Shown: positions 4,707-58,003, numbered from the stretch's first letter. The stretch: DNA of 64,000 nt from Candidatus Falkowbacteria bacterium (GCA_018674305.1 JABHAL010000002.1:1286-65285), one strand, 5' to 3'. The notes: generated by a model not told the origin, from the sequence alone. Translations and numbers: made by a program.

Positions 4707-4933
4707 AATACAAATGGGATAAAGGTGACAAAGGAGATAACTTGAGTTCAAATTATCAGCAAAATCACAACTCCACTTTTTTCAAAATAAACACAGATAC
4801 GTTTATTACCTGATTTAATAAAATTTGATTATATTTAAATTATAGTTCATTTTTGGTTAATATACAACAATATAGTAAATAGTAAAGTGTAAAGAGTAAA
4901 TAGAATTACATTTTACCTTTTACTCGTTACTTT

Positions 4934-39286: not shown

Positions 39287-40870
39287 CTAAATTAACGACC
39301 GCCCTGACATTTCATCAGGAATATCAATATTCATCATTTTTAAAATCGTTGGTGCAACATCAGACAAAAGACCAATCGGCTGAACTAAACTTAAATCATT
39401 GCCTACCAACTGAACATCCTCGATTGTTTTTCCTTCAAATTGTTTGCCAATCACTAGACACGGCACAGGATTAGTACTATGCTCCTTGTCTTTTTCACCT
39501 GTTTGTAAGTTCACTAACTCTTCAGCATTACCGTGGTCTGCAACTATCATTGCCTGCCCGCCTTTTGATAAAATTAAATTCACAACATCGCCCAACAATT
39601 TATCAGTATACTCAATTGATTGAACTGTTGGCTTAATTTCACCAGTGTGACTAACCATGTCAGGATTGGCATAATTAACCACAATAAAATCATGTTTCTC
39701 ACTCATAATCTCTTTCATCAAATCATCAGTAACTTTCTTGGCTGACATTTCCGGCTTTTCTGAATATGTTGCCACCTTTGGAGAAGGAATTACAATTCTG
39801 TCTTCGCCTTCGTATGGATCCTCCGTTCCACCACTAAAGAAAAAAGTAACATGGGCATACTTTTCAGTTTCCGCAATATGCAACTGTTTGTACCCTTTTT
39901 GACTTAAAATTTTTGGTAGTGACATCTTGATTTCTTCTTTTGGAAAAATAACTTCTACTGGTAGGCCCTCCTCATATTCTGTCATTGTAGCAAAAAACAA
40001 ATTTGCAATTTTTTCACTTCTCTGAAACTTATCAAAATCATCCATAACAAAAGCTTTAGTCAACTGCCTAGCACGATCAGCTCGATAATTGAAATATATC
40101 ACCGCATCGTTTTTTTCAACTACAGAAGTTGGCCTTCCATCTTTACCAATTACAACTGGCTCAAACTCTTCATCATAAACTTTATGCTTATAAGAACCCT
40201 GAACTGCTTTTACTGGATTTTTGTAATACTCTTCACTTTTTCCTTCGACCATTGCTCGATATGTTTTTTCTATCCTTTCCCAACGATTATCACGATCCAT
40301 AGCAAACATACGTCCATGCAGAGAAGCCACTACGCCAACACCAATTTCCTTGAATTTTTCCTCAAGTTCTTGAATGAATCCTTCACCACTATTATATGGT
40401 GAATCACGGCCATCTAAAAATGCATGTACATACACTTCTTTAACTTTATTTTTCTTGGCTAATTCCAAAAGACCATAACAATGACTGTTCATACCATGAA
40501 CCTTACCTTCACTCATCAACCCCACAAGATGCAATTTTGAATTATGTTTTTGTACATGAGCAATTGCCTTCTTGAGAGTTTCATTTTCAAAGATTGTCTC
40601 ATCCTCAATTGCCTTGCTAATCCTAGGTAAGTTTTGATAAAAAATCTTCCCTACACCTAAATTCAAATGACCAACTTCCGAATTCCCCATTTCACCCCAG
40701 GATAACCCCACAGCCTCACCTGAAGCTAACAAAGTCATAGCAGGATAATTTGCTACTAATTTATCAAAATTAGGTGTTTTGGCCAAAGTCACACCATTAC
40801 CTTCTGACGCTGGAGCAATTCCCCAACCATCAAGAATTATAAGTACAACTGGTTTAGGTATTTTTTGCAT
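39287..40870 (-). CDS. gpmI: 2,3-bisphosphoglycerate-independent phosphoglycerate mutase, copy 1
   Basis: ILDGWGIA, GNSEVGH (phospho-Ser) and metal-ligand motifs. Confidence 0.85.
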   Translation of the reverse strand: MQKIPKPVVLIILDGWGIAPASEGNGVTLAKTPNFDKLVANYPAMTLLASGEAVGLSWGEMGNSEVGHLNLGVGKIFYQNLPRISKAIEDETIFENETLKKAIAHVQKHNSKLHLVGLMSEGKVHGMNSHCYGLLELAKKNKVKEVYVHAFLDGRDSPYNSGEGFIQELEEKFKEIGVGVVASLHGRMFAMDRDNRWERIEKTYRAMVEGKSEEYYKNPVKAVQGSYKHKVYDEEFEPVVIGKDGRPTSVVEKNDAVIYFNYRADRARQLTKAFVMDDFDKFQRSEKIANLFFATMTEYEEGLPVEVIFPKEEIKMSLPKILSQKGYKQLHIAETEKYAHVTFFFSGGTEDPYEGEDRIVIPSPKVATYSEKPEMSAKKVTDDLMKEIMSEKHDFIVVNYANPDMVSHTGEIKPTVQSIEYTDKLLGDVVNLILSKGGQAMIVADHGNAEELVNLQTGEKDKEHSTNPVPCLVIGKQFEGKTIEDVQLVGNDLSLVQPIGLLSDVAPTILKMMNIDIPDEMSGRSLI

Positions 40871-40877
40871 ATTTTGT

Positions 40878-42422
40878 TTATTTTATTAGAGATTTTTTTA
40901 TTTTTTTTGAAATATTTTCTTGATTATATAAATCATATACTGTTGGCGCAATATCACCTAGAATACCTTTTCTTAATTTAACCCCCTTGTGTTCATCAGA
41001 AACTAGAACAAACGGGACTGGATTAGTAGTATGCCCAGTCCAAATCTCATTTGTTTTTAAATCAATCATTTTTTCAGCATTACCATGGTCAGCAGTTATA
41101 ATTATAACACCTTTATTTTTTAATACTAGCTTAGTCAATTCACCAATACATTTATCTACATGGTTGACTGCCTCCACGACTGCCTTCAAATTACCCGTAT
41201 GACCTATCATGTCTGGATTAGCAAAATTAATTGCAAAGAAATCGAATTTTTTTCTTTCAATAAATTGTTTTACTTTGTTAGTTATTTTGTAAACACTCAT
41301 TTCAGGTTTAAGTGCATAACTTTTCACTCGAGGTGAATTAATTTTAAGCCTTGCTTCACCGTTTACCGGATCAGCTGAACCTCCATTCATAAAGTAAGTA
41401 ACATGGGCATATTTTTCTGTTTCTGCAATATAAAGCTGTTTTTTGTCATCCAAAATTATTGGCAAAGTTGCATTTAATTCAGCAGCAGGATAGGCAGTTA
41501 AAATATGATCTAAATCTGGGCCAAAATCAGTTAAAGCACAAAACTCCAACCCTTTGTATACTTTAGATCGACGAAAAGCACCTTTATTCATTCTATTAAA
41601 ATCATGTTGAACAAAACATTTGCTCAACTGCCTGGAGCGATCAGAACGCGCATTGAAAAATATCACTCCATCTTTTTCTTTTATTCTAGTCTTTTCTGTC
41701 TGCTTTTTGTCTTTACCAATAACACACGGCTCGATAAACTCATCCGTTTGCTTTTGATTATAAGCATGTACGATCGCATCACGATAATCATTAAAAAATG
41801 CTCCTTTTCCAATAGTCATGCAGTCGTAAGCTTTTTGAGTTCGTTTCCAGTTTTTACCTCGATCCATAGCATAAAACCTACCAATCAAACTAACAATTAC
41901 AGCTTTACCGTAAACATTTTTCAATACTTCATCAACAATTTTCAAAGCATGAAACTGCGGCGCATCACGCCCATCCGTAAACAAGTGTAAATATATTTTC
42001 CGAAGCCCTTTACTGTAAGCTAAATCAACCAAAGAATACAAATGATCCAAAGATGAATGTGGACTTTCTCCATCTGAAACCATTCCCATCAAGTGCAAGG
42101 CTGATTTATTTTTTTTGACTACTTCAATTGTTTGATTTAAAGCTGAATTTTTCTTAAATCGTCCATTCAAAATGTCTTCGGAAATCTCAACTGCGTCGTC
42201 TTTGACAACTCTTCCTGCGCCTATATTAATATGCCCAGCCTCAGAATTCCCAACATAATGTTTTGGTAAACCAACATTAAGACCATGAGCTTTTAATTCT
42301 GTATGCGGATACTTTTTCCAAAGCAAATCAAAGTTTGGCTTTTTCGCCAACTCAATTGCATTGCCTTTGCTTTTTGGTGCAATTCCCCATCCATCTAGAA
42401 TTAATAATACTACAGGTCCCAT
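40878..42422 (-). CDS. 2,3-bisphosphoglycerate-independent phosphoglycerate mutase, copy 2 (divergent tandem paralog)
   Basis: ILDGWGIA and GNSEAGH motifs. Approximately 35-40% identical to copy 1. Confidence 0.75.
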   Translation of the reverse strand: MGPVVLLILDGWGIAPKSKGNAIELAKKPNFDLLWKKYPHTELKAHGLNVGLPKHYVGNSEAGHINIGAGRVVKDDAVEISEDILNGRFKKNSALNQTIEVVKKNKSALHLMGMVSDGESPHSSLDHLYSLVDLAYSKGLRKIYLHLFTDGRDAPQFHALKIVDEVLKNVYGKAVIVSLIGRFYAMDRGKNWKRTQKAYDCMTIGKGAFFNDYRDAIVHAYNQKQTDEFIEPCVIGKDKKQTEKTRIKEKDGVIFFNARSDRSRQLSKCFVQHDFNRMNKGAFRRSKVYKGLEFCALTDFGPDLDHILTAYPAAELNATLPIILDDKKQLYIAETEKYAHVTYFMNGGSADPVNGEARLKINSPRVKSYALKPEMSVYKITNKVKQFIERKKFDFFAINFANPDMIGHTGNLKAVVEAVNHVDKCIGELTKLVLKNKGVIIITADHGNAEKMIDLKTNEIWTGHTTNPVPFVLVSDEHKGVKLRKGILGDIAPTVYDLYNQENISKKIKKSLIK

Positions 42423-45129: not shown

Positions 45130-45384
45130 TTAATCCCCTGCAATCGAAATCAATTCCCAGGAGCTACCGTCAACTTTGTTAATTTTAACTTTTGCGCCCT
45201 CGGCAACTGTATTTCTACTCAACATCTGTAAATTGAACTCTAAATTTTCAGAACTAATATCTGCACCATGTTCGATCACTGAACCCAAATCAATCAAAAT
45301 CTTCTTAACCTGCTTGAGGTTATTTTTTTTCGCTTGTTCCAGCACAAGCTTGTGGATTTTGTCCGCTACATGAAGATCATGCAT
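45130..45384 (-). CDS. HypA-like nickel metallochaperone N-domain; lacks the C-terminal zinc-binding CxxC module
   Basis: MHDLHVADKIHKLVLEQAKKNNLKQVKKILIDLGSV...VAEGAKVKI aligns with HypA MHE...EEHAKKN...GCKL. It has no Cys and stops at 84 aa. Confidence 0.5.
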   Translation of the reverse strand: MHDLHVADKIHKLVLEQAKKNNLKQVKKILIDLGSVIEHGADISSENLEFNLQMLSRNTVAEGAKVKINKVDGSSWELISIAGD

Positions 45385-45517
45385 AATTTTTTGATATATT
45401 AATTATAGCATAATATTTATTGTAATTAAAATTACTTTATTGACAAAAGAGGTCTTTATTGTTATATTAATAAAAATGAACGTTAACAAGCAGAAATGCT
45501 TTATATAGGAGGAGGTT

Positions 45518-46288
45518 ATGGTCTGGACAAGTGCAGATGAAAGCCGAGCACGCAGAGAGGGGTTCAGTGTTGAGCAAGAAAGAAATCGCCAACGGTATAT
45601 AGATCACATTAAGGCGAATAATGCTCTACAAGAGAAAGAAAAAGAAAGAAAAAAAAGAGAAAAAGAAAAAGATGATGATAAGATGAAAGTCCAGTTAGTA
45701 TTGATGTTCTTTGTTGCTCCAGTTGTGATTATTTTTATGATTGTCCTTTTAATCATTCAAATATCTGGCAACGGTCACATCCTCACCGGTGATTCCAAAA
45801 TTGCTTCTGAGTATAAGCAAAAGAGAAAGGAAGTAGTAGAACTGCAAGAAAAATTGTCCGAAAAAATAACTAAACTGGGAGTTGCTGAAACAGAATTCAA
45901 AGCAACAATCGCTAGCAATGTTGGGACAATTCAGAGTAACATTAGACGTGGGCAAATCAGGAGCTTCAATGATGCAGTAAGGAATCAAGAAAGCAACACC
46001 AAACTCAAGATAATTGCCAAAGCACAAGCTTATCTCGAAATCGTGACTGCTGAGAAAAGAGCAGTTGCCAGAGCGGGTGTTGAGCTTCAAGGAATACGGG
46101 CTAATCTTGACCTTGATCTAACAATGCTAAAAGCGACAGATCAAGAAGAAATGGACGATTTGATTAAAAAGCTTGATAATGTCATCACAAAAATCAAGCC
46201 TGTAGCAGAGGAATACGTAATCAATGATTACAACAGAGGTTCCTCAGATCTCAAAAGCACTTGGAATAAATATTTTATTCAGAAGTAG
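45518..46288 (+). CDS. membrane-anchored (signal-anchor) protein carrying the shared ~150-aa helical domain; cassette member 1
   Basis: Charged N-terminus then TM helix VQLVLMFFVAPVVIIFMIVLLII. The C-terminal domain A.QKAQAY...LDLDLTML...VITKIKP is shared with the next three genes. It has its own TTGACA-17-TATATT promoter and a terminator at 46294-46322. Confidence 0.6.
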   Translation: MVWTSADESRARREGFSVEQERNRQRYIDHIKANNALQEKEKERKKREKEKDDDKMKVQLVLMFFVAPVVIIFMIVLLIIQISGNGHILTGDSKIASEYKQKRKEVVELQEKLSEKITKLGVAETEFKATIASNVGTIQSNIRRGQIRSFNDAVRNQESNTKLKIIAKAQAYLEIVTAEKRAVARAGVELQGIRANLDLDLTMLKATDQEEMDDLIKKLDNVITKIKPVAEEYVINDYNRGSSDLKSTWNKYFIQK

Positions 46289-46402
46289 ACGTGGACTCGA
46301 CAATCTTATTGTCGAGTTTTTAAATTCAGAAAACATTGACAAATAACTAGAAATAAGGGAAAATAACCTAATTGAACTTTAACAACAAAACAAGGGGGAA
46401 AC

Positions 46403-46951
46403 ATGCGACATCATACAATATGTTTTTTTACATTAATATTTCTTCTTTGTTTACCCACCTGCAACAAAAGAGATGCAAAAAAGGAAACTAAGGAAAAATA
46501 TGAAACTGTAATTTCCTTAATGGAAAAACTACATGAGAAGCATGTCAACATTGACAACACAATAAAAAAGTTCAAAGACAAAAAAACTGAATTCAAAAAA
46601 GCCATCAAAGGGATTAAATCCAAACGTGGAATTTCGTCTTATGCTGAGGCAGAAAACAACAAGCCTTTAATGATCCATCTAACAGCCTACCAAAAAGTTG
46701 AAGCATATTTAAAAATACTTAAGGAAGAAGATAAAAAAACTGAACAAGCCGCCATTGAATTATATGGTATTCAGATGCAACTTGAGCTTGACATTGAAAT
46801 GCTTGAAAGCATAGAAAATGCCGACCTGGAAGAAACACTTAAGCAATTGAATTTAGTGATTGACAAAATCCAGCCTACAGCAGATAACCTGGTATTAAAT
46901 GATGAAAACACACCCAAAACGCCACTAGAAAAACTTTTCAATGAACTTTGA
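46403..46951 (+). CDS. lipoprotein carrying the shared domain; cassette member 2
   Basis: MRHHTICFFTLIFLLCLPTCNK lipobox-like signal. Domain ...YQKVEAYLKIL...LELDIEML...VIDKIQPTADNLVLNDENTPKTPLEKLFNE. Terminator at 46964-46993. Confidence 0.6.
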   Translation: MRHHTICFFTLIFLLCLPTCNKRDAKKETKEKYETVISLMEKLHEKHVNIDNTIKKFKDKKTEFKKAIKGIKSKRGISSYAEAENNKPLMIHLTAYQKVEAYLKILKEEDKKTEQAAIELYGIQMQLELDIEMLESIENADLEETLKQLNLVIDKIQPTADNLVLNDENTPKTPLEKLFNEL

Positions 46952-47066
46952 AAACAACTCATCAAAACCAGCACCACACCGTGCTGGTTTTTTCATTGAC
47001 AAATCATAAAAAATAAGGGAAAATAACCTAATTGGACTTTGACAACAACCCATTGAGGAGGCCTTA

Positions 47067-48887
47067 ATGAAACATTACTTGAATACAATAGTTCTCCTAC
47101 TTGTTATTATTTTCTTCTCGGTGACCTGCAGTAAAAATGAACAGCCAAATGAAGTCATAGATTCAAAACCCAACAGCTCCGCTAAACTACTTGCTAAATT
47201 CAAGCACACACAAGCAGTTTATGGAATTGACTGGCATCCTGATGGAAAACTAATTGCATCTAGACACTACCGAGACACAGCTTTCATCTGGAACACTGAA
47301 AACAAAACTCGACAATTTGTTCATGATGGCAAGCAACTCACCGACATAAAATTCAGTACTGATGGTAGTTACTTAGCCTTTATTGATCACGAAATTTCTA
47401 AATATAGCTGTCAGCGCGAATGTCGTTACTCTGACTATGAACGTTGCAATGACTGCAAGAAAAAACACGAGAACGATTACGATGTGAGATTCTTGTCAAA
47501 AGTCTACGACCTTAGACTAAAACATTACTTAAAAGAAATAGCAAGTGGCTCCGCTCAAACAATCTCAGCTGACCTCAAGGTATATGTCACCCACGCTCTC
47601 GATTCAAAAATAATCTACTTTGATGGGACATACTTCTTTTCCTCCAGCAGTCGTGCAGGGATGGAGACTTTCATAGAGTCTAGTTCGAAAAATCACTTTT
47701 TTCATGAAGTAAAAAGTTATTCTGTGCGAAAAACAGAAGAAACAAAAGAAGGAAATACACACCTCGGCGCAATGACAATTTTCTTGTCCACAAAAGGAAA
47801 TCTGTTAAAGATTTTCAATCAAGCCGACGACGGGAAGGGGCCTCATTGTTCCATAAAACAATGCAGTCATGATTACAAAATTATGGCTGCAGAGTGGCAA
47901 CCCGGAACTAAGAAAATAACAGTTTTAAGTTCTGACAACATTCTAAGTCTTTGGGATAGTTGTTTCTCAGGTAAACAGCTTTACACCTACAATCACTCTG
48001 GCAGTGAAGCAGTGACCCTAAAATGGAATGTATCAGGTGATGTTCTGGCAGTTCAATTCATGAACAATATTTTACTGTTCAATGAAAAATTGGAACTCCA
48101 AAAAACACTGGATATTATGAGTAATGATATTGCCTGGAACAAAGATGGCAATATTTTAGCAGTCATTACCAAAAATAAAATTTATTTTTGGGACAACCTG
48201 AATTCGAATCTAACTTTTCATGAAAGTTCAGAAAAAATTAATGATTTTGCCTGGAATCCGGAATTCAATCAATTCGCCCTGGCGACTGAAGTGAATGACG
48301 ACGAAGGCTTTGTAGAAATTTGGGAGATTGACTCTTCTTATAGAATCATCGTCGCCAACAAAAAGAGAACTTCCAATAATACAGAACATCAGCTGACAAT
48401 CAAAGAAGAAACAGTAAAAAAATTAACCACTGTTCGCTCTCTCATAAAACAATTACAAAAAAAGGAAGAATCACTATCAGATGATCTTCGATCCTTCCAA
48501 ACTGACGTAGACAGATACAAATCAACAATCACTGACTTGAAACTACACAACAATATTGCAAGCTATAAAGAAGCGGTCAAGAATGACCGGATAAACAATT
48601 ATCTTGTAGCGATGCAAAAAGCTTTGGCCTACATGGACTTTATTAAACATGAGCTTTTAACTACTAGCAAAAGTTTAGTGGAGTCTGAAGGCACTCAATT
48701 ACAACTGGAGCTTGATGCAAAAATTCTGGACAGCTTAGACGAGAACAAATTGGACCAGATGATTGCTCAATTGGACTTGGTTATCACAAAAATTCAACCA
48801 AACGCCCAGGAACTCGTGATTAAAGAAAATGACACACAAAAAATACCATTAGAAAAACTATACAATGAGTATTTTGAAGATGAGTAG
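47067..48887 (+). CDS. lipoprotein with an N-terminal beta-propeller (WD40/PD40-like) and the C-terminal shared domain; cassette member 3
   Basis: Signal peptide with SVTC|S. Repeated WHPDGKLIAS / FSTDGSYLAF / WNVSGDVLAV / WNKDGNILAV blades. C-terminus ...AMQKALAYMDFI...LELDAKIL...VITKIQPNAQELVIKENDTQKIPLEKLYNEY. Terminator at 48895-48923. Confidence 0.6.
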   Translation: MKHYLNTIVLLLVIIFFSVTCSKNEQPNEVIDSKPNSSAKLLAKFKHTQAVYGIDWHPDGKLIASRHYRDTAFIWNTENKTRQFVHDGKQLTDIKFSTDGSYLAFIDHEISKYSCQRECRYSDYERCNDCKKKHENDYDVRFLSKVYDLRLKHYLKEIASGSAQTISADLKVYVTHALDSKIIYFDGTYFFSSSSRAGMETFIESSSKNHFFHEVKSYSVRKTEETKEGNTHLGAMTIFLSTKGNLLKIFNQADDGKGPHCSIKQCSHDYKIMAAEWQPGTKKITVLSSDNILSLWDSCFSGKQLYTYNHSGSEAVTLKWNVSGDVLAVQFMNNILLFNEKLELQKTLDIMSNDIAWNKDGNILAVITKNKIYFWDNLNSNLTFHESSEKINDFAWNPEFNQFALATEVNDDEGFVEIWEIDSSYRIIVANKKRTSNNTEHQLTIKEETVKKLTTVRSLIKQLQKKEESLSDDLRSFQTDVDRYKSTITDLKLHNNIASYKEAVKNDRINNYLVAMQKALAYMDFIKHELLTTSKSLVESEGTQLQLELDAKILDSLDENKLDQMIAQLDLVITKIQPNAQELVIKENDTQKIPLEKLYNEYFEDE

Positions 48888-48998
48888 ATAACACAAACCA
48901 GCACCACACCGTGCTGGTTTTATTATTGACAATAACGTAAAATATTAGTAAGATACAATGATTATGAACTTTTACAACAAAATGACAAGGAGGCCCAA

Positions 48999-51218
48999 AT
49001 GTCCAGATGGCTAAAGACAATTATTACTGTTATTATTATCATTTTTGCTTGTTCTTGTAACAAAGACAAAAAGGCCAAGAAAAATAAGTCAACTCGTCCT
49101 GAAGTCGCTGAAAAAAACTCCCCTAACTCCAATACTGAACCAGCTCCCCTCTCACAAGAAAAAGAAGCTCCACCAAAGTCAAAAAAAGAAATTTCCGAAG
49201 AAAAGCTTGAACATGTAAAGCATCTTCGCAGAAAACTCGAAAGAAAAGAAAGAACCTTGGCTGGCGCACTTATTACATACAAAGACAAAATTTCTATTTT
49301 TGTTCAAGAAATCAAACAAGAACGTAACCGTAGAAACTTGGTTGAATACAATCAGGCAATTTCAAGTAATTCAATCAAGCATAATCTCGAGGCAATTCAA
49401 AAAGCTGAGGCCTACTGGGGAATTACTAATAGGGAAAAAGTAAAAACAAAACTGGCAATTGTCGACGCAGAAGGAACTGAAAAACTACTTGATCTAGACA
49501 TCACCATGTTTAGCACCATGCCTGAAGATGAAATCGACAAACTACTTGATGAACTTGACCTTGTAATTAATAGAATCCAACCGACAGCCAGAGATCTTGT
49601 TATCACAGACAAGGAAACTGTGCTTACTCCTCTTGATGAGATTTACGAAAAACATATTCGTAAAGAGGAACGTGAGCGAGAAAAAAAGGAAATTGAGCGT
49701 AAAAAAAAAGCTGAAGCTGACCGGTTAGAACGAGAGCGTCAGGTAAAACTAGCAAAAGAAAAAGCGTTAGCAGATACCCAGGCTCGTGCAGCCCTTAATG
49801 CTGAAGCTCGTCGCCAAGCGTTAATTGCTAGGAAACAAGCCGATGAAGAGGCTGCTAGTCAAGAGAGGACTGCCAGACTACAAGCAATCGCCGAGGCTAC
49901 ACGCCAAGCAAAAATTGCCAGACAGCAAATAACAGCCGAAGAAAACCGCATAGCTGATGAAGTAGTAAAACAAATTGAGTATAAGAAACGCGAAGCTGAA
50001 AATCGTGCCCGAGAAAAAGCTGCTGAACTTGCTAGTAAGCAAAAAACAGCAGCAGCGATTGCTAACATCAAAATTATCAAACCCACTATCTGGACTTCTA
50101 TTGCATATTACAGACCTGGGGGTGATGGTGCAGGTTACATCCGTTGGTCAAATGATAGCAAAGCAGTGGCTATCACCACCTCATCAAAAATGACTATTAA
50201 GGGTGTTCCTCAAAGCACAACTTATGAGCTTGAATCTAATTACGATAACAGCGACTATATAACCGACATGATCTGGTCTCAAAGCAAAACCAAAATTGCA
50301 ATCTATTATTCACATTCTTGTGCACTGGAAAGAGGAAACGCCAAGATTGCAATTTACTCGTTAACAAATGATAAAGAGCTCTGGAGGGTGGAAGTCGAAT
50401 GCTCCCAAGCCGCTAGTTTCCTTGGTTGGTTTGGTGATTATATTGTCCTTAAAGCATCCGCTGGGTACAGTAGAAATTTTCACATTTACATTATCAATAC
50501 GAAAACCAAGAAAACTCAATCATTCACAGCTGACGCGATAACCCCAGTAAACAACTCCTCTGTCTTTGCTGCAAGCTCAAAAAGAATAATCCAAGTCAGT
50601 CTTTCTGACAGAACAATTCTAAAAGAGTTTAAGTTTTGTCGAGATGATGACGAGTCTCTTTATTATTCTTTTTGCCCAGGAGAGATTGACATTCATAAAC
50701 TCGCCTACACGAGCGGGCATCTAATTTCATCAGAGTCGCCACAAAACGGAGAAAGTAGCTTCTCCATTTGGGACACAACTTCTGGAAATAAACTCCACTG
50801 GTTTAAAGGTGACGAACCAAGAGATCTTTGGTGGCTAAAAGACGGCAAAACAGCAGTTATTGCTTTGTCGTCTGGCACAATTTTTACAGTAAATGCGAAA
50901 AGTGGATCAATTTACGAGAAAAAGCTCGTAGATGGTGCGATTGGCTTTTATGGCTATAATGTAAACACTTGGTCCACTAAAAAACCTCATCTTGTTATCA
51001 ATAAAAATTCTCCTCAGCACGAAACAGCTCTTAATGAAAAAGCAGGTTCGTACAATACTCTCTTTGTCATGGATATTAGGGACCAACAAACAAAGGCCGT
51101 CTTGGTTATGGAGTCAGATATCTCAGATTCTGTCAGACTTTCATGGAGCCCAAACGGCAAGTACCTCGCAATTGGAGACAAGGGACTCCTTCATGTTTTC
51201 AATGTAAGCAATATTTGA
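48999..51218 (+). CDS. lipoprotein with the shared domain, a long charged coiled-coil and a C-terminal beta-propeller; cassette member 4
   Basis: Signal peptide with FACSC|NK. Central AIQKAEAYWGI...LDLDITMF...VINRIQPTARDLVITDKETVLTPLDEIYEK. A ~150-aa E/K/R/A-rich helix follows, then WSNDSKAVAI / WSQSKTKIAIYY / WLKDGKTAVIAL / WSPNGKYLAIGD blades. Terminator at 51223-51251. Confidence 0.6.
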   Translation: MSRWLKTIITVIIIIFACSCNKDKKAKKNKSTRPEVAEKNSPNSNTEPAPLSQEKEAPPKSKKEISEEKLEHVKHLRRKLERKERTLAGALITYKDKISIFVQEIKQERNRRNLVEYNQAISSNSIKHNLEAIQKAEAYWGITNREKVKTKLAIVDAEGTEKLLDLDITMFSTMPEDEIDKLLDELDLVINRIQPTARDLVITDKETVLTPLDEIYEKHIRKEEREREKKEIERKKKAEADRLERERQVKLAKEKALADTQARAALNAEARRQALIARKQADEEAASQERTARLQAIAEATRQAKIARQQITAEENRIADEVVKQIEYKKREAENRAREKAAELASKQKTAAAIANIKIIKPTIWTSIAYYRPGGDGAGYIRWSNDSKAVAITTSSKMTIKGVPQSTTYELESNYDNSDYITDMIWSQSKTKIAIYYSHSCALERGNAKIAIYSLTNDKELWRVEVECSQAASFLGWFGDYIVLKASAGYSRNFHIYIINTKTKKTQSFTADAITPVNNSSVFAASSKRIIQVSLSDRTILKEFKFCRDDDESLYYSFCPGEIDIHKLAYTSGHLISSESPQNGESSFSIWDTTSGNKLHWFKGDEPRDLWWLKDGKTAVIALSSGTIFTVNAKSGSIYEKKLVDGAIGFYGYNVNTWSTKKPHLVINKNSPQHETALNEKAGSYNTLFVMDIRDQQTKAVLVMESDISDSVRLSWSPNGKYLAIGDKGLLHVFNVSNI

Positions 51219-51315
51219 CAATAAACCCACCTTCGACAAGGTGGGTTTTTACTTGACAAAACCATTAAAATGTATAAAACTAGTATGAAAGGTTGATCTT
51301 TAACAGAAGGAGGTC

Positions 51316-52167
51316 GTGATGACGAAAAGATTAAAATTCTCCAGACTTATCCTAGGTATTATCTGTATCGCACTTGCAATTCTGATTTTCATGGCCTTAA
51401 TTCGTTTTGGCACTGTATTTGCTTTTCTCATGATCTATCCGTGGATTTCCGACGCCTTGCAATCCTCTGCTGGAATGAATCACTGGCTAGCAAGTATAAT
51501 CGCCTTTGTTCCGGCAGTCGTCGGGGTAATCGGCATTGGGATGCTTTTCTCCTGGAATAGGAAAAGACGAACTATCGGCATGGTCATGGCGGGTATCGCC
51601 TATCTCACCACGTGCGCCTTTATGTACTCCATTGAGGCAGATCGCTCATTTGACCCCATTACAGGAAAAGCAAATAAATGCTATGCTGCAGGCTTAAACG
51701 GTTATGAAGAAATTTCTTGTGAATGGAAATTCCATCCCGAGACTGGCAATCCCGTCATCACAGACCTTGGTGAAATTAAAAAAATCATCACCTCAATGAA
51801 TGTTTCAGAAAGTGAACCAAGGATCTCCAATAAGGTCCGTCCAAACAAAAACCTACGTTTCTTCTCTGTTGATGGAACACCTATGTATTGGTACTATGAA
51901 TTTCCAGATGGCGTAATTGACATGTTTGACTCCCCTGGTAGACATCCACACTTCAACACAGTACTGCAGCCCATCACGCCAGAAATTGTAAAAATCGTTC
52001 TTTATCCTCAAGATAATTGGGATATTGAAAGAGTTAATTTGCCAGACTCAAAGCCCATCAGCCAGGGTGACCCAAAAGCGCTTTCATCTGCCAACAGCGG
52101 AAACGATAGCGCTATGGAAGAACTTCGCGATCTCTATATCGAGAGAAAAAAGCAACTAAAACAGTAA
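51316..52167 (+). CDS. membrane protein with 3-4 N-terminal TM helices and an extracytoplasmic C-domain
   Basis: 283-aa ORF with its own promoter-like TTGACA at 51253 and a GGAGG Shine-Dalgarno. Confidence 0.45.
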   Translation: MMTKRLKFSRLILGIICIALAILIFMALIRFGTVFAFLMIYPWISDALQSSAGMNHWLASIIAFVPAVVGVIGIGMLFSWNRKRRTIGMVMAGIAYLTTCAFMYSIEADRSFDPITGKANKCYAAGLNGYEEISCEWKFHPETGNPVITDLGEIKKIITSMNVSESEPRISNKVRPNKNLRFFSVDGTPMYWYYEFPDGVIDMFDSPGRHPHFNTVLQPITPEIVKIVLYPQDNWDIERVNLPDSKPISQGDPKALSSANSGNDSAMEELRDLYIERKKQLKQ

Positions 52168-52227
52168 ATCACAAACACAAGGCCCACCGTAACACGGAGG
52201 GTCTTTTTTATACTTGGTAATTAAAAT

Positions 52228-53505
52228 TTAATGCGTCGCGCAACTGATACATGGATCGTATGCCCGAATCAAAGTTTTTATTAACGAATCTCTCTTCTTA
52301 TCTGACAACTTTTTAATTTGCGGCAAATATTTCTCAAGATCTTTTTCCAAATTAGCCAAAAACATAGCGGTTGGTGTAATTACATTGCAATGAATAATTT
52401 CGCCCACCTTGTTAAATTCATATTCATGATACAAGATCCCACGAGGTGCCTCCATCACAGCATAACCCTTACCAGCCTTAACTATGAAATCAACTTTTAG
52501 GTTTTTCATAAACTTCGGTTTTGCTCGCAGTTTCTCATATTGGACAAAAAGTTTATTTATCTCCTCAATTGAATTAATAATCTCAGTTGTCTGGGCTACT
52601 ATATTATAGAATGAATTATAACACGGCAAGTTCACTTTTAGCTTATTCCAAGAAGCTTTTGCCTCTTTGTTCAGCTGAGCATAATTATTGTTCACTCGAG
52701 CAAGAGCGCCAACCATGAACGTTTCTTTCATATGATGTGAGCGTTTAACTTTTTCATATGGTAAAACAGTTTCTTGCACGTCACTTAGGAAATCCTCGAC
52801 TTTATCATAACTATCATTATCTGAGAAATAAATGCTCCCATCATAAACTGCATATTCATTTTTATTTTTCAAAGAAACATAATTTGTTGGTCTTTGAAAC
52901 TTTGGTAATTTATATTTCAAAACCACATCATGAATTTGCCTAGCTTGTAATAGAACTTGCTTTTGTTTTTGCATTAATTCTTTAAGTTCAACAAAGTCTG
53001 GCTCAACATTAAATCCACCAACTACACTATTAATCGGATGAACGGTTCGACCTCCAACAACTCGCGCTAACTGCACTCCCCAATCACGAACTTGAAGAGC
53101 AATTTTTGACTCTTTGGTATACTTATTTATCAAAGCAAAATTATTACTAACACCTACGATATCAGGAAACGAGAAAAAGAAAGCATGTACTGCATGACTA
53201 TGAATTATTTGCGCATTTTCTAGGATCTTACGAAGCAATATTATTTCCGGAGTTACCCTGACACTAAAAGCTGCCTCAACGGCCTTAATTGAAGTTAAAT
53301 TATGCACAATCGGGCATACACCACAAATCCGCGAAGTTACAATCGGAGCTTCGTAATATTTTCTATTTAATAATATTCCTTCGATCAAACGAGCTCCCTC
53401 TTCTGTGTCCACGCGAGCTTGAGCAAAATCATTACCAAGCAAAGCCCCAACGAAACTCAGGTGGCCTTCAGTTTTGGCGATGTGATTTATTTTAATAGTT
53501 TTCAT
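52228..53505 (-). CDS. [NiFe] hydrogenase large subunit (group 3b-like)
   Basis: N-terminal RICGVCPIVH (L1, RxCGxCxxxH). The C-terminus ends at DPCISCATH (L2), with no C-terminal extension. Confidence 0.8.
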   Translation of the reverse strand: MKTIKINHIAKTEGHLSFVGALLGNDFAQARVDTEEGARLIEGILLNRKYYEAPIVTSRICGVCPIVHNLTSIKAVEAAFSVRVTPEIILLRKILENAQIIHSHAVHAFFFSFPDIVGVSNNFALINKYTKESKIALQVRDWGVQLARVVGGRTVHPINSVVGGFNVEPDFVELKELMQKQKQVLLQARQIHDVVLKYKLPKFQRPTNYVSLKNKNEYAVYDGSIYFSDNDSYDKVEDFLSDVQETVLPYEKVKRSHHMKETFMVGALARVNNNYAQLNKEAKASWNKLKVNLPCYNSFYNIVAQTTEIINSIEEINKLFVQYEKLRAKPKFMKNLKVDFIVKAGKGYAVMEAPRGILYHEYEFNKVGEIIHCNVITPTAMFLANLEKDLEKYLPQIKKLSDKKRDSLIKTLIRAYDPCISCATH

Positions 53506-54524
53506 AAAGGATATTTTATTTTACCTGTATTAACAATTAACATTTTTTTATCTTTCGGTAATTTGTTTTTCAATTGAAGCATCAACGCCAACCCAGCAAT
53601 ACCAGAGGCCTCACAATCTATTTGTTGGCACGCAGCAACTCTCAAGGCCTCATCAATAAATTGTTCTTTAACGTTATAAACATCCGATTTCGAACCACAA
53701 TAACCAGCATAGCGATAAAGTTTAATCCACTGCTCATCATAATTAACAAAGGGCAAATGAGGGGAAAACAATTTATTAGCCTTAGTCTTCGGATTGTTAG
53801 TGGTCGACCCAAAAAAATTACAAGCTCTCAATTTATTCACTCTACCCCTAAACCTTGGGTCATGATGACTTGTCACAACCTCCCGTTTATTAATATTTAA
53901 AATATTTTCAAATAAATGTCCCGACCCAAACGGAACAAAACAATAGTCAGGAGAACTGTTAATAATTTCATAACTTAACCAGTCATAATATCTAGTTGTC
54001 GGATCAAGTGCTTCACTTGACGTAATATCGAAACCATTTTTATTTTTTGTTAATCGCAAAATTTCATTCCAAGAAAACGCTTTTTCACTTAAATCAGTTT
54101 TAAATATCTTGCAACCAGTTTTATACAAAAATTTCAGAATTTCATCATCAATGTGATTATCAACTAGTACTCGCAAATTAGGTAATTTATACTTTTTCAA
54201 TTGCACCTGAATGGCAATCGCTGCTGAACCTGATGAGATTATTGAAACATCGGGTAATTTACTTATTTGTCCCCCTTTTTTTGACAACAAGAAATCACGA
54301 TAAGTCACTACCATTTCCCAAGCCATTCTATCTTTATGCGTCCCCGTTGGATTATGACTTTCATCCTTCAACCAAACATTATTAAATCCAGGTACTTTTA
54401 TTTTGTAAGTTGGAGTAGCGGGAAACTTCGGATCATCAACTGGAAATTCGGGCTTTTCTGGATTATTTTCCGATGCAATTACAATTGACTTTAATATTTT
54501 TTCTTCTTGCTTGGTTAATGCCAT
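53502..54524 (-). CDS. PLP-dependent fold-type-II enzyme (TrpB/ThrC/CysK-like) embedded in the hydrogenase operon
   Basis: LKDESHNPTGTHKDRMAW matches the K-x-E-x-x-NPTGSFKDR PLP-lysine signature. Its stop overlaps the large-subunit start. Confidence 0.5.
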   Translation of the reverse strand: MALTKQEEKILKSIVIASENNPEKPEFPVDDPKFPATPTYKIKVPGFNNVWLKDESHNPTGTHKDRMAWEMVVTYRDFLLSKKGGQISKLPDVSIISSGSAAIAIQVQLKKYKLPNLRVLVDNHIDDEILKFLYKTGCKIFKTDLSEKAFSWNEILRLTKNKNGFDITSSEALDPTTRYYDWLSYEIINSSPDYCFVPFGSGHLFENILNINKREVVTSHHDPRFRGRVNKLRACNFFGSTTNNPKTKANKLFSPHLPFVNYDEQWIKLYRYAGYCGSKSDVYNVKEQFIDEALRVAACQQIDCEASGIAGLALMLQLKNKLPKDKKMLIVNTGKIKYPL

Positions 54525-54537
54525 AAATAATTTCTAA

Positions 54538-55305
54538 TTATTTTCTAAGTTTATTTCTTTTCTTCCAAACTAACTCTTTAACGCCAAAAACTTCAAAAAA
54601 TTTAGAGATTTCTTTATCTGAATATTTTTCTTTTAATTTTTTGATTAAATTATCTACTTCCGCATCTTCAACTAAACCACGACAACCCCAACAGCCTTGC
54701 ATTGATTTTGTACAAATAGCATCACATCCGCCTTGCGTAATTGGCCCCATACAGACCTCACCATATTGCAAAACACACTTTTGTCCCCTCACTTGGCACT
54801 CATAACAAACTGGATTTTGAGTAATAGCTGGTTCTTTGCCAATTAATAGCTGGTATACAAAATCATAAAATTCTTCTCCTGTTATTGGACATCCTGGGAT
54901 AGAAAAATCCACCTTAACGTATGCACTTAGTGGCTTGACATCCAAATTCTCAATTCCCTTTTCACCTTGATAAACATAATCATGAATTTTGTTTTTATCT
55001 TGATACATTTTTAAATGATAAATTCCACCCATATGTGCGCAACTACCAATTGAGATGACATACTTTGAATTTTTCCTAACCAACTTTAACTGTTTGATAT
55101 CTCGCGTGGTCAAAGGGCTACCTTCAACAAAAACAATATCGTACTTTTCATCTGGTGAGTGTTCGTCCTCTTCAAATAAACGAAAATTTACTATTTCAAT
55201 TTTTTCATTCAATTCAAGTAACTTATTTGGTAAATCTAAAATCGCAACACAGCAACCTTCACAGCCGGTCAATGGGAATATTCCTACTTTTATTTTGTTA
55301 TTCAT
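54538..55305 (-). CDS. [NiFe] hydrogenase small (delta) subunit
   Basis: N-terminal GCEGC proximal-cluster motif plus further Cys ligands (CxxC, CWGC). Confidence 0.75.
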   Translation of the reverse strand: MNNKIKVGIFPLTGCEGCCVAILDLPNKLLELNEKIEIVNFRLFEEDEHSPDEKYDIVFVEGSPLTTRDIKQLKLVRKNSKYVISIGSCAHMGGIYHLKMYQDKNKIHDYVYQGEKGIENLDVKPLSAYVKVDFSIPGCPITGEEFYDFVYQLLIGKEPAITQNPVCYECQVRGQKCVLQYGEVCMGPITQGGCDAICTKSMQGCWGCRGLVEDAEVDNLIKKLKEKYSDKEISKFFEVFGVKELVWKKRNKLRK

Positions 55306-55338
55306 AGTAATAAGTAAAATGTAAAAGGTAAAAAGTAA

Positions 55339-55707
55339 TCACAACTGTTTTTGAATTGATTTTATCAAACCATTTATAAGTCTTTTCACCTCATCTGCAT
55401 GATTTACTAACTCTTCACAAAAACTGCTTTCTAATATATTAAGACCTCTTGAAACAAGTAAAAAACTTTGCACTTCTGACAACGAACCCCTCGCTTGATA
55501 ATAAAATCGAATCTTATCTTTGAAATAATAGCGAGAAAATCCTTCAGCAATGTTGGCGGTGATCGATATTGAAGCTCTTCGGATTTGACTTATAAGTCCA
55601 AATTTTTCTTCAGCAGGAAAATCCGATGTCACCTCATAAACTTTTAAAGTAAATTTATATGCACGTTGCCAAGCCTTTAAATCGTAATAATTATTTATTT
55701 TATTCAT
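55339..55707 (-). CDS. four-helix-bundle protein (TIGR02436 family, '23S rRNA intervening-sequence protein')
   Basis: DLKAWQRAYKFTLKVYEVTSDFPAEEKFGLISQIRRASISITANIAEGFSRY is the canonical family signature. Confidence 0.75.
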   Translation of the reverse strand: MNKINNYYDLKAWQRAYKFTLKVYEVTSDFPAEEKFGLISQIRRASISITANIAEGFSRYYFKDKIRFYYQARGSLSEVQSFLLVSRGLNILESSFCEELVNHADEVKRLINGLIKSIQKQL

Positions 55708-55740
55708 AACAGTCCCTTATTACCCTTTACACTTTACTGG

Positions 55741-56214
55741 TTACTTTTTACGTTGTTCCAAAATTGCCTTTAATTCTTCAGGTCGATTGGTTACAAAAAA
55801 GTATGGTCGTCTTTGGCCAGCAACTGTAATAACTAAACCTTTACCTCCCCGAGGCACATAACCAACTGTTTTGTCACGACCAAATCGAATACCGTAACCT
55901 AAATAATTTTGAAACTTATACTCACTAAATTCTATTTTTTTTATTTTACTTATTAAAATACGCTTGCGGAATTTCATAAACCCGAAGATTAAATGCGTAT
56001 CACTTACCTTGATGTTTAACTCTCGAAAAGACGCCAAAATGAAAACATTCAACAATAAAATAATTGCTAATACAGTTTTTGAAGCGTTGTCCAAAGCAAT
56101 TGGTTTATCTGTGTACTGCGACATTAGAATTATAAGAAAAATCAAACAGGTGATTACCAGAATCGCAGTAATTAAATGATAAGTTTGAACCTTGTCTTTG
56201 AAAATTGTTGGCAT
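55741..56214 (-). CDS. bacterial PH-domain (DUF304-like) membrane protein
   Basis: Two TM helices followed by a beta-rich ~90-aa domain. Confidence 0.4.
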   Translation of the reverse strand: MPTIFKDKVQTYHLITAILVITCLIFLIILMSQYTDKPIALDNASKTVLAIILLLNVFILASFRELNIKVSDTHLIFGFMKFRKRILISKIKKIEFSEYKFQNYLGYGIRFGRDKTVGYVPRGGKGLVITVAGQRRPYFFVTNRPEELKAILEQRKK

Positions 56215-56234
56215 ATTTTTTATCTATTCACTCA

Positions 56235-57032
56235 TTAAAAATAATTTACACTTCTTAAAAATTCATAATTAAACACAGGACCATCTTTGCAAATATACTT
56301 GGACCCAATAGCACAATGCTGACACACTCCTACTCCGCAATGCATTCTTTTTTCCAATGAAAAATACATATTAGCTGGCTCAACCTTTTTGGCCAAAAGT
56401 TCTTTCACAACGAACTTGTACATTATCGCTGGCCCACAGACAAACACTAACGAATTCTTCAATAACTTCTTTTTCTTTATTAAGTCCGTAACAAATCCTT
56501 TTTGTTTAGCAAACCCGGGAATAGTTTCATTTTCCAAAATCAATCCAAAATCATGTTTGTTTTTTATTTTTGAATACTCTCTTTTGAATACTAGTGATTC
56601 CTGTGTCGAACAACCAACCAACACTTGAAGCTTAATATCTTTACGATTGCGATTTTCTTCGAACACGCTTCGCAATGGAATAAAACCACAACCACCACCG
56701 ATCAGAATTAAATTTTTAGTAACCTCAGGAAATCCGTTACCAAAAGGTCCACGCACAAAAGCTTTATCGCCAACCTTCAGGTTATTTAATTTAGCAGTTA
56801 ATTCTCCAACACTACGAATTGTTAAACAAAAATGTTTATCTGACAACTTTGGGCTCGAAGAAATTGAAATAGGGCATTCACCAAAACCTGGTAAGCCAAT
56901 TTGCATAAACTGCCCTGCCAAAAATTTTAATTCATTTTGCTTGTCCAAACTAAAATAAAAAGTATTGGTAATTGAATTTTCTTTAACTACTTTAATAACC
57001 TTTGCTGGTTGTAGGGCATATTGATTTTTCAT
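56235..57032 (-). CDS. hydrogenase gamma subunit (FAD/NAD(P)-binding oxidoreductase with a C-terminal 2Fe-2S site)
   Basis: Ferredoxin-reductase-like fold; C-terminal CGVGVCQHC cluster. Confidence 0.7.
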   Translation of the reverse strand: MKNQYALQPAKVIKVVKENSITNTFYFSLDKQNELKFLAGQFMQIGLPGFGECPISISSSPKLSDKHFCLTIRSVGELTAKLNNLKVGDKAFVRGPFGNGFPEVTKNLILIGGGCGFIPLRSVFEENRNRKDIKLQVLVGCSTQESLVFKREYSKIKNKHDFGLILENETIPGFAKQKGFVTDLIKKKKLLKNSLVFVCGPAIMYKFVVKELLAKKVEPANMYFSLEKRMHCGVGVCQHCAIGSKYICKDGPVFNYEFLRSVNYF

Positions 57033-58003
57033 ACTTTTTTCAATTCTTGCAAATTCTCAGCAATATTAATTTCAACTGGGCAAGTTTTGTAACAACGCAT
57101 ACAACTAACACAACCATAGTAATCGAACTCATCAGGAATGCGTACAAATTTATGATAATACCAAAAATATAATTTCTTTTTTACTGAATCCAATTCTTTA
57201 TTACCACCCGTTATTTCAGAAAACTTTGGATAAAAACAGGTTGTCCATTGTCGTGTTTTCACGACTTGATCAAATTCAACCTTATCCTTCTGGTCAAAGC
57301 AAAAACAGGTTGGACAATGGATTGAGCACTTCCCGCAACTAAGACAAATTTTAGCTAATTTATCCCATAGTGGGTGGTCAGGATTGTTCAATATTGCTAG
57401 CTTTTTTTGTTCAATCAAAGGATTGGGACCATGCTCAGGTATAAATCCAGCAAATTCAATATTTTCGTAGTCTTCAATTTTACTTTTTTCCAGAAGCTGT
57501 TGACCTTTTTCCGAGCCGGAAAACAAAATCAAATTACCACTCTTCTGTCTTTCAACAAAAACATCAAAAATAAGATGCTCTAACACATCTTCTTCATATT
57601 TTTTATTAAACACTTTGTATTTACGTAAATCATCCTCAATGCCATTAGTTAAACCAATATAATGTAAGGATTGTCGACGCTTTTGAAAATAATAATCTTT
57701 AGCAAAAACCTGTTCAAATAAAGCCAAGGCTCGTAAATCTAAAATATTTAATCCAAGAATAAAAATAGGCTTTATTTTTTCATTAATAACTTTAGCTACG
57801 TCCTTGGAATATGTCGCCATATCTTGTTTAGCTGGCAAAACAATTGACTTGAATGAATTCAATGGTATGTCACCAGACCAGTCCATATCCCCCGGTTTAA
57901 AAATTTGTTTAACTAAAACCATTTCTCCATCTTTAACTGGAGAATAAACGAAACCCTTTTCTAGCAATTTTGCTACAAATTTATCAAATTCAGACTTTTT
58001 CAT
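57029..58003 (-). CDS. hydrogenase beta subunit (iron-sulfur protein)
   Basis: CLSCGKCSIHCPTC and CVSCMRCYKTCP ferredoxin-type motifs. Overlaps the start of the gamma subunit. Confidence 0.7.
   Translation of the reverse strand: MKKSEFDKFVAKLLEKGFVYSPVKDGEMVLVKQIFKPGDMDWSGDIPLNSFKSIVLPAKQDMATYSKDVAKVINEKIKPIFILGLNILDLRALALFEQVFAKDYYFQKRRQSLHYIGLTNGIEDDLRKYKVFNKKYEEDVLEHLIFDVFVERQKSGNLILFSGSEKGQQLLEKSKIEDYENIEFAGFIPEHGPNPLIEQKKLAILNNPDHPLWDKLAKICLSCGKCSIHCPTCFCFDQKDKVEFDQVVKTRQWTTCFYPKFSEITGGNKELDSVKKKLYFWYYHKFVRIPDEFDYYGCVSCMRCYKTCPVEINIAENLQELKKV

Follow-up and report, generated by a model that had tools for sequence, protein, structure and literature searches.

Tandem genes for predicted envelope-anchored proteins built on a common helical domain in Candidatus Falkowbacteria

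The general kind of locus described here is already familiar: a tandem family of surface-anchored proteins, with conserved and variable parts, in a bacterium with a small genome. In the Vlp/Vsp-type families of Mycoplasma and the lipoprotein families of Borrelia, the genes lie in tandem and are individually promoted, the products are membrane- or lipid-anchored and share a conserved part while their exposed parts differ, copy number varies between relatives, and the organisms combine a small genome with a presumed host-associated lifestyle. Each of these features recurs, as observed or as predicted, at positions 45385-52167 of a 64,000-nucleotide (nt) stretch of chromosomal DNA from Candidatus Falkowbacteria, of the Candidate Phyla Radiation (CPR; GCA_018674305.1, JABHAL010000002.1:1286-65285; hereafter, the window). 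Here, four consecutive plus-strand genes (M1-M4) encode putative anchored proteins that share a domain of ~160 amino acids (aa), and a fifth (gene 5) encodes a polytopic membrane protein. The same genes are present on public contig JABJGG010000001.1 (assembly GCA_018662385.1), and NCBI records list the encoded proteins as Falkowbacteria hypothetical proteins.

CPR bacteria, or Patescibacteria, make up a large part of bacterial diversity and are thought to live on other cells. To our knowledge, their surface proteins are almost entirely uncharacterised. With moderate confidence, we interpret the locus as a conserved, lineage-restricted envelope module of Falkowbacteria, in which tandem monocistronic genes encode anchored proteins with a new helical base and are accompanied by the gene-5 partner. 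A first-pass annotation of the DNA had described M1-M4 as a diversifying, recombining family of surface proteins, putatively adhesins or host-interaction proteins; it did not mention gene 5, which we consider part of the system, nor recognise that the array is conserved as a module of the chromosome, surrounded by core genes.

The shared domain and its attachments

The domains of M1-M4 aligned almost without gaps, with 24 invariant columns and 25-38% identity, and even M1 and M4 (among the most distant pairs) matched each other over 137 gapless residues (BLASTP E=3e-16). A hidden Markov model (HMM) of the domain, searched against six frames of the 64-kb window, recovered exactly four copies, those in M1-M4. 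The first-pass annotation was therefore right that four consecutive plus-strand genes share a homologous domain, and the motifs that it quoted are present in all four. AlphaFold2, given a six-sequence alignment, predicted a three-helix antiparallel bundle with a mean predicted local distance difference test (pLDDT) score of 87.7. In the model, a pair of antiparallel helices of ~50 residues each precedes a third helix, an extended stretch with the conserved sequence IQPxAxELV, and a short terminal helix. Generic helical-hairpin and three-helix folds (tektin, TraC, BAR domains, PspA and the N-terminal region of IpaB) share 2-17% sequence identity with the domain, matches that are typical for any long helical hairpin; they have no Pfam or PDB sequence relationship to it and differ in cellular location.

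Searches of Pfam-A, NCBIfam and PADLOC gave no match over the domain below E ~0.01 and none that reached a curated cut-off, and the best E-value among PDB sequences was 0.15. The domain nevertheless belongs to a sizeable family. A word-indexed protein search returned five relatives, suggesting a near-orphan, a reading overturned by an exhaustive profile HMM search: 305 cluster representatives were recovered at E<=1e-3, and 125 remained at E<=1e-10, with alignments covering essentially the full length. A pattern scan of genome contigs with a 26-sequence alignment was too diverse to work, while a narrower alignment succeeded via a single peptide pattern and gave four loci, a count that understates the distribution of the domain because only this pattern was used. 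All named members are hypothetical proteins, from Falkowbacteria, Parcubacteria/Patescibacteria and metagenome-assembled genomes of Desulfobacterales; IMG/VR and GenBank phages contained no relatives. Judged by these searches, the domain is uncharacterised and does not belong to a widespread module with single-copy orthologues, which would have contradicted the first-pass annotation. We found no description of the family or of its association with gene 5 in the searchable literature, and both are undescribed as far as this literature and the searched libraries show.

The four proteins carry the domain in different settings. M1 (45518-46288, plus; 256 aa) has a charged N-terminus, one transmembrane (TM) helix (~aa 59-83) and then the domain (aa 95-256). 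M2 (46403-46951, plus; 182 aa) consists of a lipobox-like signal (LPTC) and the domain alone (aa 22-182). In M3 (47067-48887, plus; 606 aa), a lipobox-like SVTC precedes a WD40-type propeller region (~aa 41-440), and the domain is C-terminal (aa 445-606; nt 48399-48884). M4 (48999-51218, plus; 739 aa) begins with a lipobox (IFAC), and its domain (aa 61-223; nt 49179-49667) is connected by a charged helical stalk (aa 224-365) to a propeller head (~aa 366-739) that resembles WD40 weakly. The stalk comprises 142 residues, of which 71% are E, K, R, A or Q and none is glycine. These are the architectures that had been annotated, with the qualification that the WD40 match of M4 is marginal (PF12894, 24.6 bits against a cut-off of 22.9). 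The M3 propeller scored well above its cut-offs (PF00400, 42.4 bits against 27; PF12894, 42.9 against 22.9) and matched PDB entry 2ymu with E=1e-27. Beyond the repeat motif, the two propellers have no detectable similarity to each other.

Of the anchors that had been assigned (one signal anchor and three lipobox-like signals), M1 has a predicted TM helix, the IFAC of M4 fits the lipobox pattern [LVI][ASTVI][GAS]C, and the LPTC of M2 and the SVTC of M3 are non-canonical, with an atypical T at -1. The M3 orthologue at locus L005 has SIAC at this place. A lipobox expression matched ahead of the domain in 28 of 151 family representatives, and canonical lipoboxes are present in many homologues. The presence of a lipobox or signal anchor in the members is consistent with the envelope exposure proposed for the family. 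Neither Lgt nor LspA was found among the 36 window open reading frames (ORFs) scanned.

Across 151 retrieved sequences, the domain mostly lies 20-70 residues past a lipobox, an N-terminal signal anchor or the last of several TM helices. The commonest long form is that of M4, with a charged stalk and a propeller. Other members have no attachment, Cys-rich tails, ankyrin repeats or TPR repeats, and Desulfobacterales members have an acidic N-terminus and a TM helix, then the domain, then LRR-like repeats. Every recognisable partner of the domain is a protein-binding repeat scaffold. The domain is a slowly evolving and usually membrane-proximal base, to which attachments are joined that vary between paralogues and species. 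At the Desulfobacterales locus L069 (1582-5167), a pentapeptide-repeat/TIR protein is followed by two members, one of 598 aa with LRR-like repeats and one of 192 aa; this neighbour is a hint that distant members may be involved in conflict or signalling.

Rates of change separate the base from what it carries. Relative to L005, the ratio of nonsynonymous to synonymous divergence (dN/dS) was 0.32 for M1, 0.13 for M3 and 0.19 for M4 (partial), compared with 0.017 for enolase, 0.064 for phosphoglycerate kinase (PGK) and 0.040 for hypA among the neighbours; dS was saturated at ~0.6-2.2, so that these ratios are rough. The shared domain was the most constrained part of M3 and M4 (dN/dS 0.08-0.09), and the signal and linker regions and the stalk (dN 0.88 for the stalk) were the least constrained. 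Between M4 and its orthologue at L002, the base is 66% identical and the propeller 22%. In every M4-type homologue compared, the base shows higher conservation than the head, and several heads lack full-length similarity. These comparisons point to a conserved base with a fast-evolving or replaceable head.

Repeated junctions and the history of the array

The genes of the window lie nearly all on the minus strand and are housekeeping genes: tRNA synthetases, MreB, PBP2, an F-type ATP synthase, glycolysis and a group-3b-like [NiFe]-hydrogenase. M1-M4 and gene 5 form a plus-strand island between a short hypA (45130-45384, minus) and the hydrogenase large-subunit gene (52228-53505, minus). GC content is slightly higher in the island than around it. 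From 46001 to 50000, AT skew is strongly positive (0.21-0.27) and GC skew is near zero, against -0.1 to -0.3 elsewhere in the window; this pattern is consistent with purine-rich (A-rich) coding on the strand opposite to nearly all other genes.

The array holds this site across relatives. At the same chromosomal position there is one copy in L014, at least three in L005, four in the window and in L009, and six in L015, so that the variation in copy number anticipated by the first-pass annotation does exist. Falkowbacteria arrays (1-6 copies) always lie between hypA/PGK and the hydrogenase genes, and they are tandem and on one strand in every Falkowbacteria locus recovered. The occupation of one site in all of these loci argues for long vertical inheritance. 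In a neighbour-joining tree of the domains, M1, M3 and M4 each paired with their own L005 orthologue (P0003, at 69% aa identity, for M1), and M4 also paired with its L002 orthologue; the paralogues, at 24-39% identity, were split by long branches, with M2 as a distant sister of M3. The long branches and the separate orthologues indicate that the array is old and did not arise in a recent burst.

Upstream of all five plus-strand genes stands a perfect TTGACA -35 box, separated by 17 nt from a -10-like hexamer that is poorest before gene 5, and the general layout is TTGACA, 17 nt, -10, 8-12 nt, GAACTTTAACAAC. All five end in a stable hairpin followed by a tract of 4-6 T (dG -13.7 to -15.9 kcal/mol; z -3.9 to -7.5), and we take these hairpins to be predicted intrinsic (rho-independent) terminators. 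The sequence features thus agree with the view of the first-pass annotation that each gene has its own promoter and terminator, and the genes are probably transcribed separately; the near-identical promoter and leader motif in all of them suggests that they are probably also co-regulated.

Within the array, the M1 promoter (45440-45468, plus) combines TTGACA, 17 nt and TATATT with a TG extension, with the degenerate leader motif TGAACGTTAACAAG downstream at ~45477-45490, and the M1 terminator (46293-46324, plus; dG -13.7, z -3.9) has a 12-bp stem followed by a U tract. The next junction carries the first copy of a 66-nt promoter/leader module (46334-46399, plus), upstream of M2, with its -35 box at 46336-46341, a -10-like GAAAAT at 46359-46364 and the leader motif TGAACTTTAACAACAA at 46373-46388. 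M2 is followed by a terminator hairpin (46964-46994, plus; dG -15.9, z -7.5) and by the second copy of the module (46994-47059, plus; -35 at 46996-47001, -10-like hexamer at 47019-47024, leader motif at 47033-47048), which stands upstream of M3. M3 ends in the same hairpin as M2 (48895-48924, plus; dG -15.0). The M4 promoter and leader (48926-48980, plus) consist of TTGACA, 17 nt, TAAGAT and the leader motif TGAACTTTTACAACAA at 48965-48980, and the M4 terminator lies at 51223-51250 (plus; dG -15.7, z -4.8). The gene-5 promoter region (51254-51315, plus) has TTGACA and the degenerate leader motif TGATCTTTAACAGAA, and the gene-5 terminator (52179-52210, plus; dG -14.8) is convergent with the hydrogenase large-subunit gene.

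That hairpins and leaders are reiterated far beyond chance is confirmed. The window has two copies of the hairpin AACCAGCACCACACCGTGCTGGTT and no more, one behind M2 and one behind M3 as had been annotated, against none expected by chance. The two 66-nt copies are 83% identical and have in common an invariant 23-nt core, which is absent from the rest of the 64 kb. The first-pass annotation had noted this duplication before M2 and M3; the duplication stands, but the leader is not confined to those two genes. A 16-nt motif, TGRACTTTNACAACAA, precedes M2, M3 and M4 and also lies across the M2 stop codon (0.08 chance matches expected), and degenerate versions precede M1 and gene 5. With two copies each of the hairpin and the leader core in 64 kb, all within the array, the repeats do not behave as dispersed repetitive extragenic palindromic (REP) elements in the window, in agreement with the earlier view. 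A search of metagenomes for the terminator stem, in which the 6-nt loop was left free, returned 50 unrelated loci, none with a CACACC loop or the domain, and was uninformative on the REP question.

Other Falkowbacteria have their own internally similar terminators, a TTGACA -35 (usually ATTGACAA) and a leader GnACnTT(G/A)ACAAC 8-12 nt after the -10. Although synonymous divergence is saturated, species differ very little in their promoter cores and terminator stems, which indicates functional constraint. The leader motif CTTT[A/G/T]ACAAC resembles the -35 region ATTGACAA that lies ~37-40 nt upstream of it (46336-46388, 46996-47048 and 48926-48980), so each promoter region has two similar boxes in direct orientation, possibly a tandem regulator site. 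We dropped a reading of the leader motif as a LexA/Cheo box, considered because lexA and dinB are nearby, since the motif is not palindromic.

Comparison with L005 suggests how whole units come and go at these junctions. The hypA-M1 intergenic region is 74% identical to its L005 counterpart, and the M1 terminator stem is conserved there, with changes in the loop. L005 has no counterpart of M2 between M1 and M3. The M1-M2 spacer of the window is the orthologue of the L005 M1-M3 spacer (82% identity), and the M2-M3 spacer finds its best match in the L005 M3-M4 spacer (75%). A unit consisting of the M2 ORF, a terminator and a promoter is thus present in one lineage and absent from the other, exactly between repeated promoter copies. 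The M4 promoter is of the TAAGAT type in the window and at L002, while L005 has an M3-type module in its place, and one M4 promoter therefore appears to have been replaced by that of a paralogue. Promoter copies within a genome also share a lineage-specific base, C in the window (AACCTAATTG) and A in L005 (AACATAATTG). The description of the array as diversifying and recombining is accordingly borne out for the junctions, with their signs of recombination, and for the fast-evolving heads and stalks; it does not extend to the coding regions as recently shuffled cassettes, because the paralogues are ancient, nor to positive selection, which was not detected.

At L002 (~1740-1990), the M4 orthologue is called as two genes, for a 240-aa base and a 340-aa WD40 protein. 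We rejected a reading of this pair as domain shuffling (i.e., a domain-only protein beside a separate propeller) because the +2 frame reads through, as in a frameshifted M4 orthologue. The frameshift lies in an A-rich lysine/glutamate-coding tract, and the stalk is much shorter than that of M4. Either an assembly error or a genuine, possibly slippage-prone, frameshift could explain this; the 240-aa product appears in three assemblies, possibly built from the same reads. This locus also appears as L008, a clear Falkowbacteria-type locus (hydrogenase, array, gene 5) labelled 'uncultured Gammaproteobacteria bacterium', probably through a binning or labelling error.

Gene 5 and competing readings of the locus

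Gene 5 (51316-52167, plus) encodes 283 aa from a GTG start (282 aa from the ATG at 51319 in the public annotation). The protein has ~3-4 TM helices and a strongly conserved C-terminal soluble domain with two invariant cysteines and the motifs CYAAG..GYEEISC.WKFHP and RFFS.DG.P..WYY..P.G; it matched no family in Pfam or NCBIfam. A gene-5 homologue adjoins domain arrays in the window and at L002, L009, L010, L014, L015, L016, L012 and L070. Among these, L014 is a minimal module at the hypA/hydrogenase site, with one M4-type gene and gene 5. L012, a Parcubacteria contig, has ten tandem multi-TM-plus-domain paralogues, and L070 (taxon unknown) has three paralogues with TPR heads. On a short contig, P0016 seemingly fuses a gene-5-like TM region to the domain, with weak scores (BLAST E=1e-5; HMM E=4e-6, 20 bits). 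Gene 5 thus turns out to be a conserved neighbour, and a predicted partner, of the arrays. L009 has two copies of it, of which one is broken: the second (4896-5686), 3' of the first array member, is split into two overlapping ORFs (101 and 191 aa) and is likely a pseudogene. At L012 (6494-8216) and L070 (17402-18196), two unrelated arrays, membrane proteins with a transglutaminase core (PF01841) adjoin the gene-5 homologue; the array of the window has no such gene.

We hypothesize that the base is a docking or oligomerisation module. On the external side of the membrane, it would hold the paralogues together, attach them to the gene-5 protein, or both, so that the repeat-scaffold heads could offer binding surfaces to external partners, such as surface or envelope components of a host or neighbouring cell. 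The shared promoter and leader would keep all genes co-regulated yet separately transcribed, and recombination at the reiterated terminator-promoter junctions could add or remove cassettes and exchange promoters. We infer the docking and the binding by the heads from architecture, gene neighbourhood and rate patterns alone. In a more far-reaching form, which we consider improbable, gene 5 would be a polytopic socket for interchangeable proteins that plug in through their three-helix base and bear swappable WD40, TPR, ankyrin or LRR-like heads, in CPR bacteria and a few other phyla. Cassettes would be added, lost and re-promoted at standard junctions, and the whole would act as a partner- or host-recognition platform in episymbionts.

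The main rival holds that the base and gene 5 form a housekeeping envelope complex, i.e., a structural or biogenesis machine (for the wall, for S-layer organisation, or as a Tol-like tether with propeller subunits) of which the paralogues are fixed subunits. We regard this as possible but doubtful. It fits the conserved site amid core genes (tRNA synthetases, MreB, PBP2, ATP synthase, glycolysis), the ancient paralogues with an orthologue each, the purifying selection on the domain (dN/dS 0.08-0.09) and the minimal version with one member and gene 5 at L014. Fixed subunits are harder to reconcile with a copy number that ranges from 1 to 6 among relatives and reaches 10 in a Parcubacteria genome, or with head types (WD40, TPR, ankyrin, LRR-like or none) that are swapped between lineages. 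The stalk is also hypervariable in length and sequence (dN 0.88), M2 is dispensable in L005, and the M4 orthologue at L002 is frameshifted.

Programmed antigenic or phase variation is very unlikely; it would rely on dedicated recombination, slipped-strand mispairing or a diversity-generating retroelement (DGR) to shuffle or switch the cassettes. The paralogue coding regions are 24-39% identical with no long coding repeat found, every copy is complete with its own promoter and none is a silent cassette, and no reverse transcriptase, invertase, integrase or other recombinase was present among the 36 ORFs scanned, even though the reiterated terminator/promoter junctions, the signs of promoter replacement and of cassette gain and loss, and the L002 frameshift in an A-rich stalk-coding tract would all suit such a system. 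A bAvd-like gene 3 kb away would suit it too, but its bAvd match (55339-55707) scored 30.6 bits against a Pfam cut-off of 40, and the gene is a member of 23S_rRNA_IVP (121.9 bits) that is conserved inside the hydrogenase operon of relatives. We therefore rejected the array as a DGR target, given this match below the cut-off, the lack of a reverse transcriptase among the 36 ORFs and the lack of a long repeat pair in the array genes. We give almost no credence to an island of mobile-element, phage-derived or defence cargo inserted between hypA and the hydrogenase genes. The plus-strand orientation in an almost wholly minus-strand region, the slightly higher GC content and the strongly positive AT skew could mark such an island, and a Desulfobacterales member adjoins a pentapeptide-TIR protein; however, the same site is occupied in all recovered Falkowbacteria loci, the window has no integrase, transposase or tRNA flanks, IMG/VR and GenBank phages gave no relatives, and PADLOC gave no match.

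Several observations weigh against our preferred reading of a conserved envelope module with a docking base and a gene-5 partner. The docking of the domain and its interaction with gene 5 draw only on gene neighbourhood and one weak fusion. The domain of M3 is C-terminal and far from the anchor, so a juxtamembrane position is not universal. In members without a lipobox the topology is not established, and the sequences of the Desulfobacterales proteins would, under the positive-inside rule, also be compatible with a domain in the cytoplasm. Positive selection was not detected, with all dN/dS ratios below 1, and concerted evolution of the promoters is hinted at by a single diagnostic site. The array at L011 has no gene-5 homologue on its contig, and distant gene-5 homologues at L017 and L018 have no domain nearby. 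For gene 5, AlphaFold2 gave a model of unusably low confidence (pLDDT 60.5; soluble domain <50).

The locus nonetheless offers a bounded set of candidates: a new domain family of ~300 clusters with a confident fold prediction, a membrane partner, variable heads and a shared promoter/leader element. It could seed a family definition and guide complex prediction and the interpretation of cryo-electron tomograms, and its conserved cis-regulatory modules are a rarity for a CPR genome. A correct docking model would describe a general route by which CPR organisms install and swap their surface recognition modules; should the model fail, the locus would still encode a conserved envelope complex worth annotating.

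Surrounding genes and comparison with described families

The genes around the array have features of their own. The HypA homologue at 45130-45384 (minus) has 84 aa, its profile match is limited to positions 1-70 of 112, and it has no cysteine, so that the CxxC motifs that usually bind zinc are lacking. Similarly short HypA proteins (84-90 aa) occupy the same place in L005, L014 and L015. On the other side, a group-3b-like hydrogenase operon (52228-58003, minus) encodes a large subunit, an Oxidored_q6 small subunit, an FAD/NAD subunit and a Fer4_22 subunit. It is interrupted by genes for a pyridoxal phosphate-dependent (PALP) enzyme (53502-54524) and for the 23S-rRNA-IVP/bAvd-like four-helix protein (55339-55707). 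The IVP gene also lies within the hydrogenase operon of L014 and L015, and the PALP gene is not in L015 or L016. Farther away, two tandem paralogues of cofactor-independent phosphoglycerate mutase (39287-42422, minus; 527 and 514 aa) form a duplication that is also present in L010. A 422-aa protein (62680-63948, minus) matches the 'shoulder' domain of the major vault protein (PF11978, E=8.5e-29), and its gene sits in the only stretch of the window in which GC content rises, to 0.435.

Three kinds of described protein bear comparison with the array. The closest in gene organisation are the Mycoplasma and Borrelia families, to which the array has no sequence relationship. Those families are recently expanded, whereas the array paralogues are ancient and syntenic, and the array lacks the simple-sequence switches or site-specific invertase found with them. 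Its conserved part is a predicted folded 160-aa helical bundle, where theirs is just the signal peptide, and unlike them it has a co-conserved gene for a polytopic membrane partner. The bacterial WD40 proteins (2ymu from Nostoc and the WD40 domain of PkwA) are the closest known counterparts of the M3 propeller, which clears the Pfam cut-off; unlike theirs, it is predicted to be lipid-anchored and is fused to a new domain. The M4 type recalls trimeric autotransporter and M-protein-like adhesins in having an anchor and a helical base from which a long charged stalk, variable in length, leads to a globular repeat head. Its stalk and head evolve faster than its base, a pattern likened to that of coiled-coil stalk-and-head adhesins. 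The M4 type has no homology to these adhesins: its head is a WD40-type propeller, and its anchor is a lipobox or TM helix in place of a beta-barrel or LPXTG.

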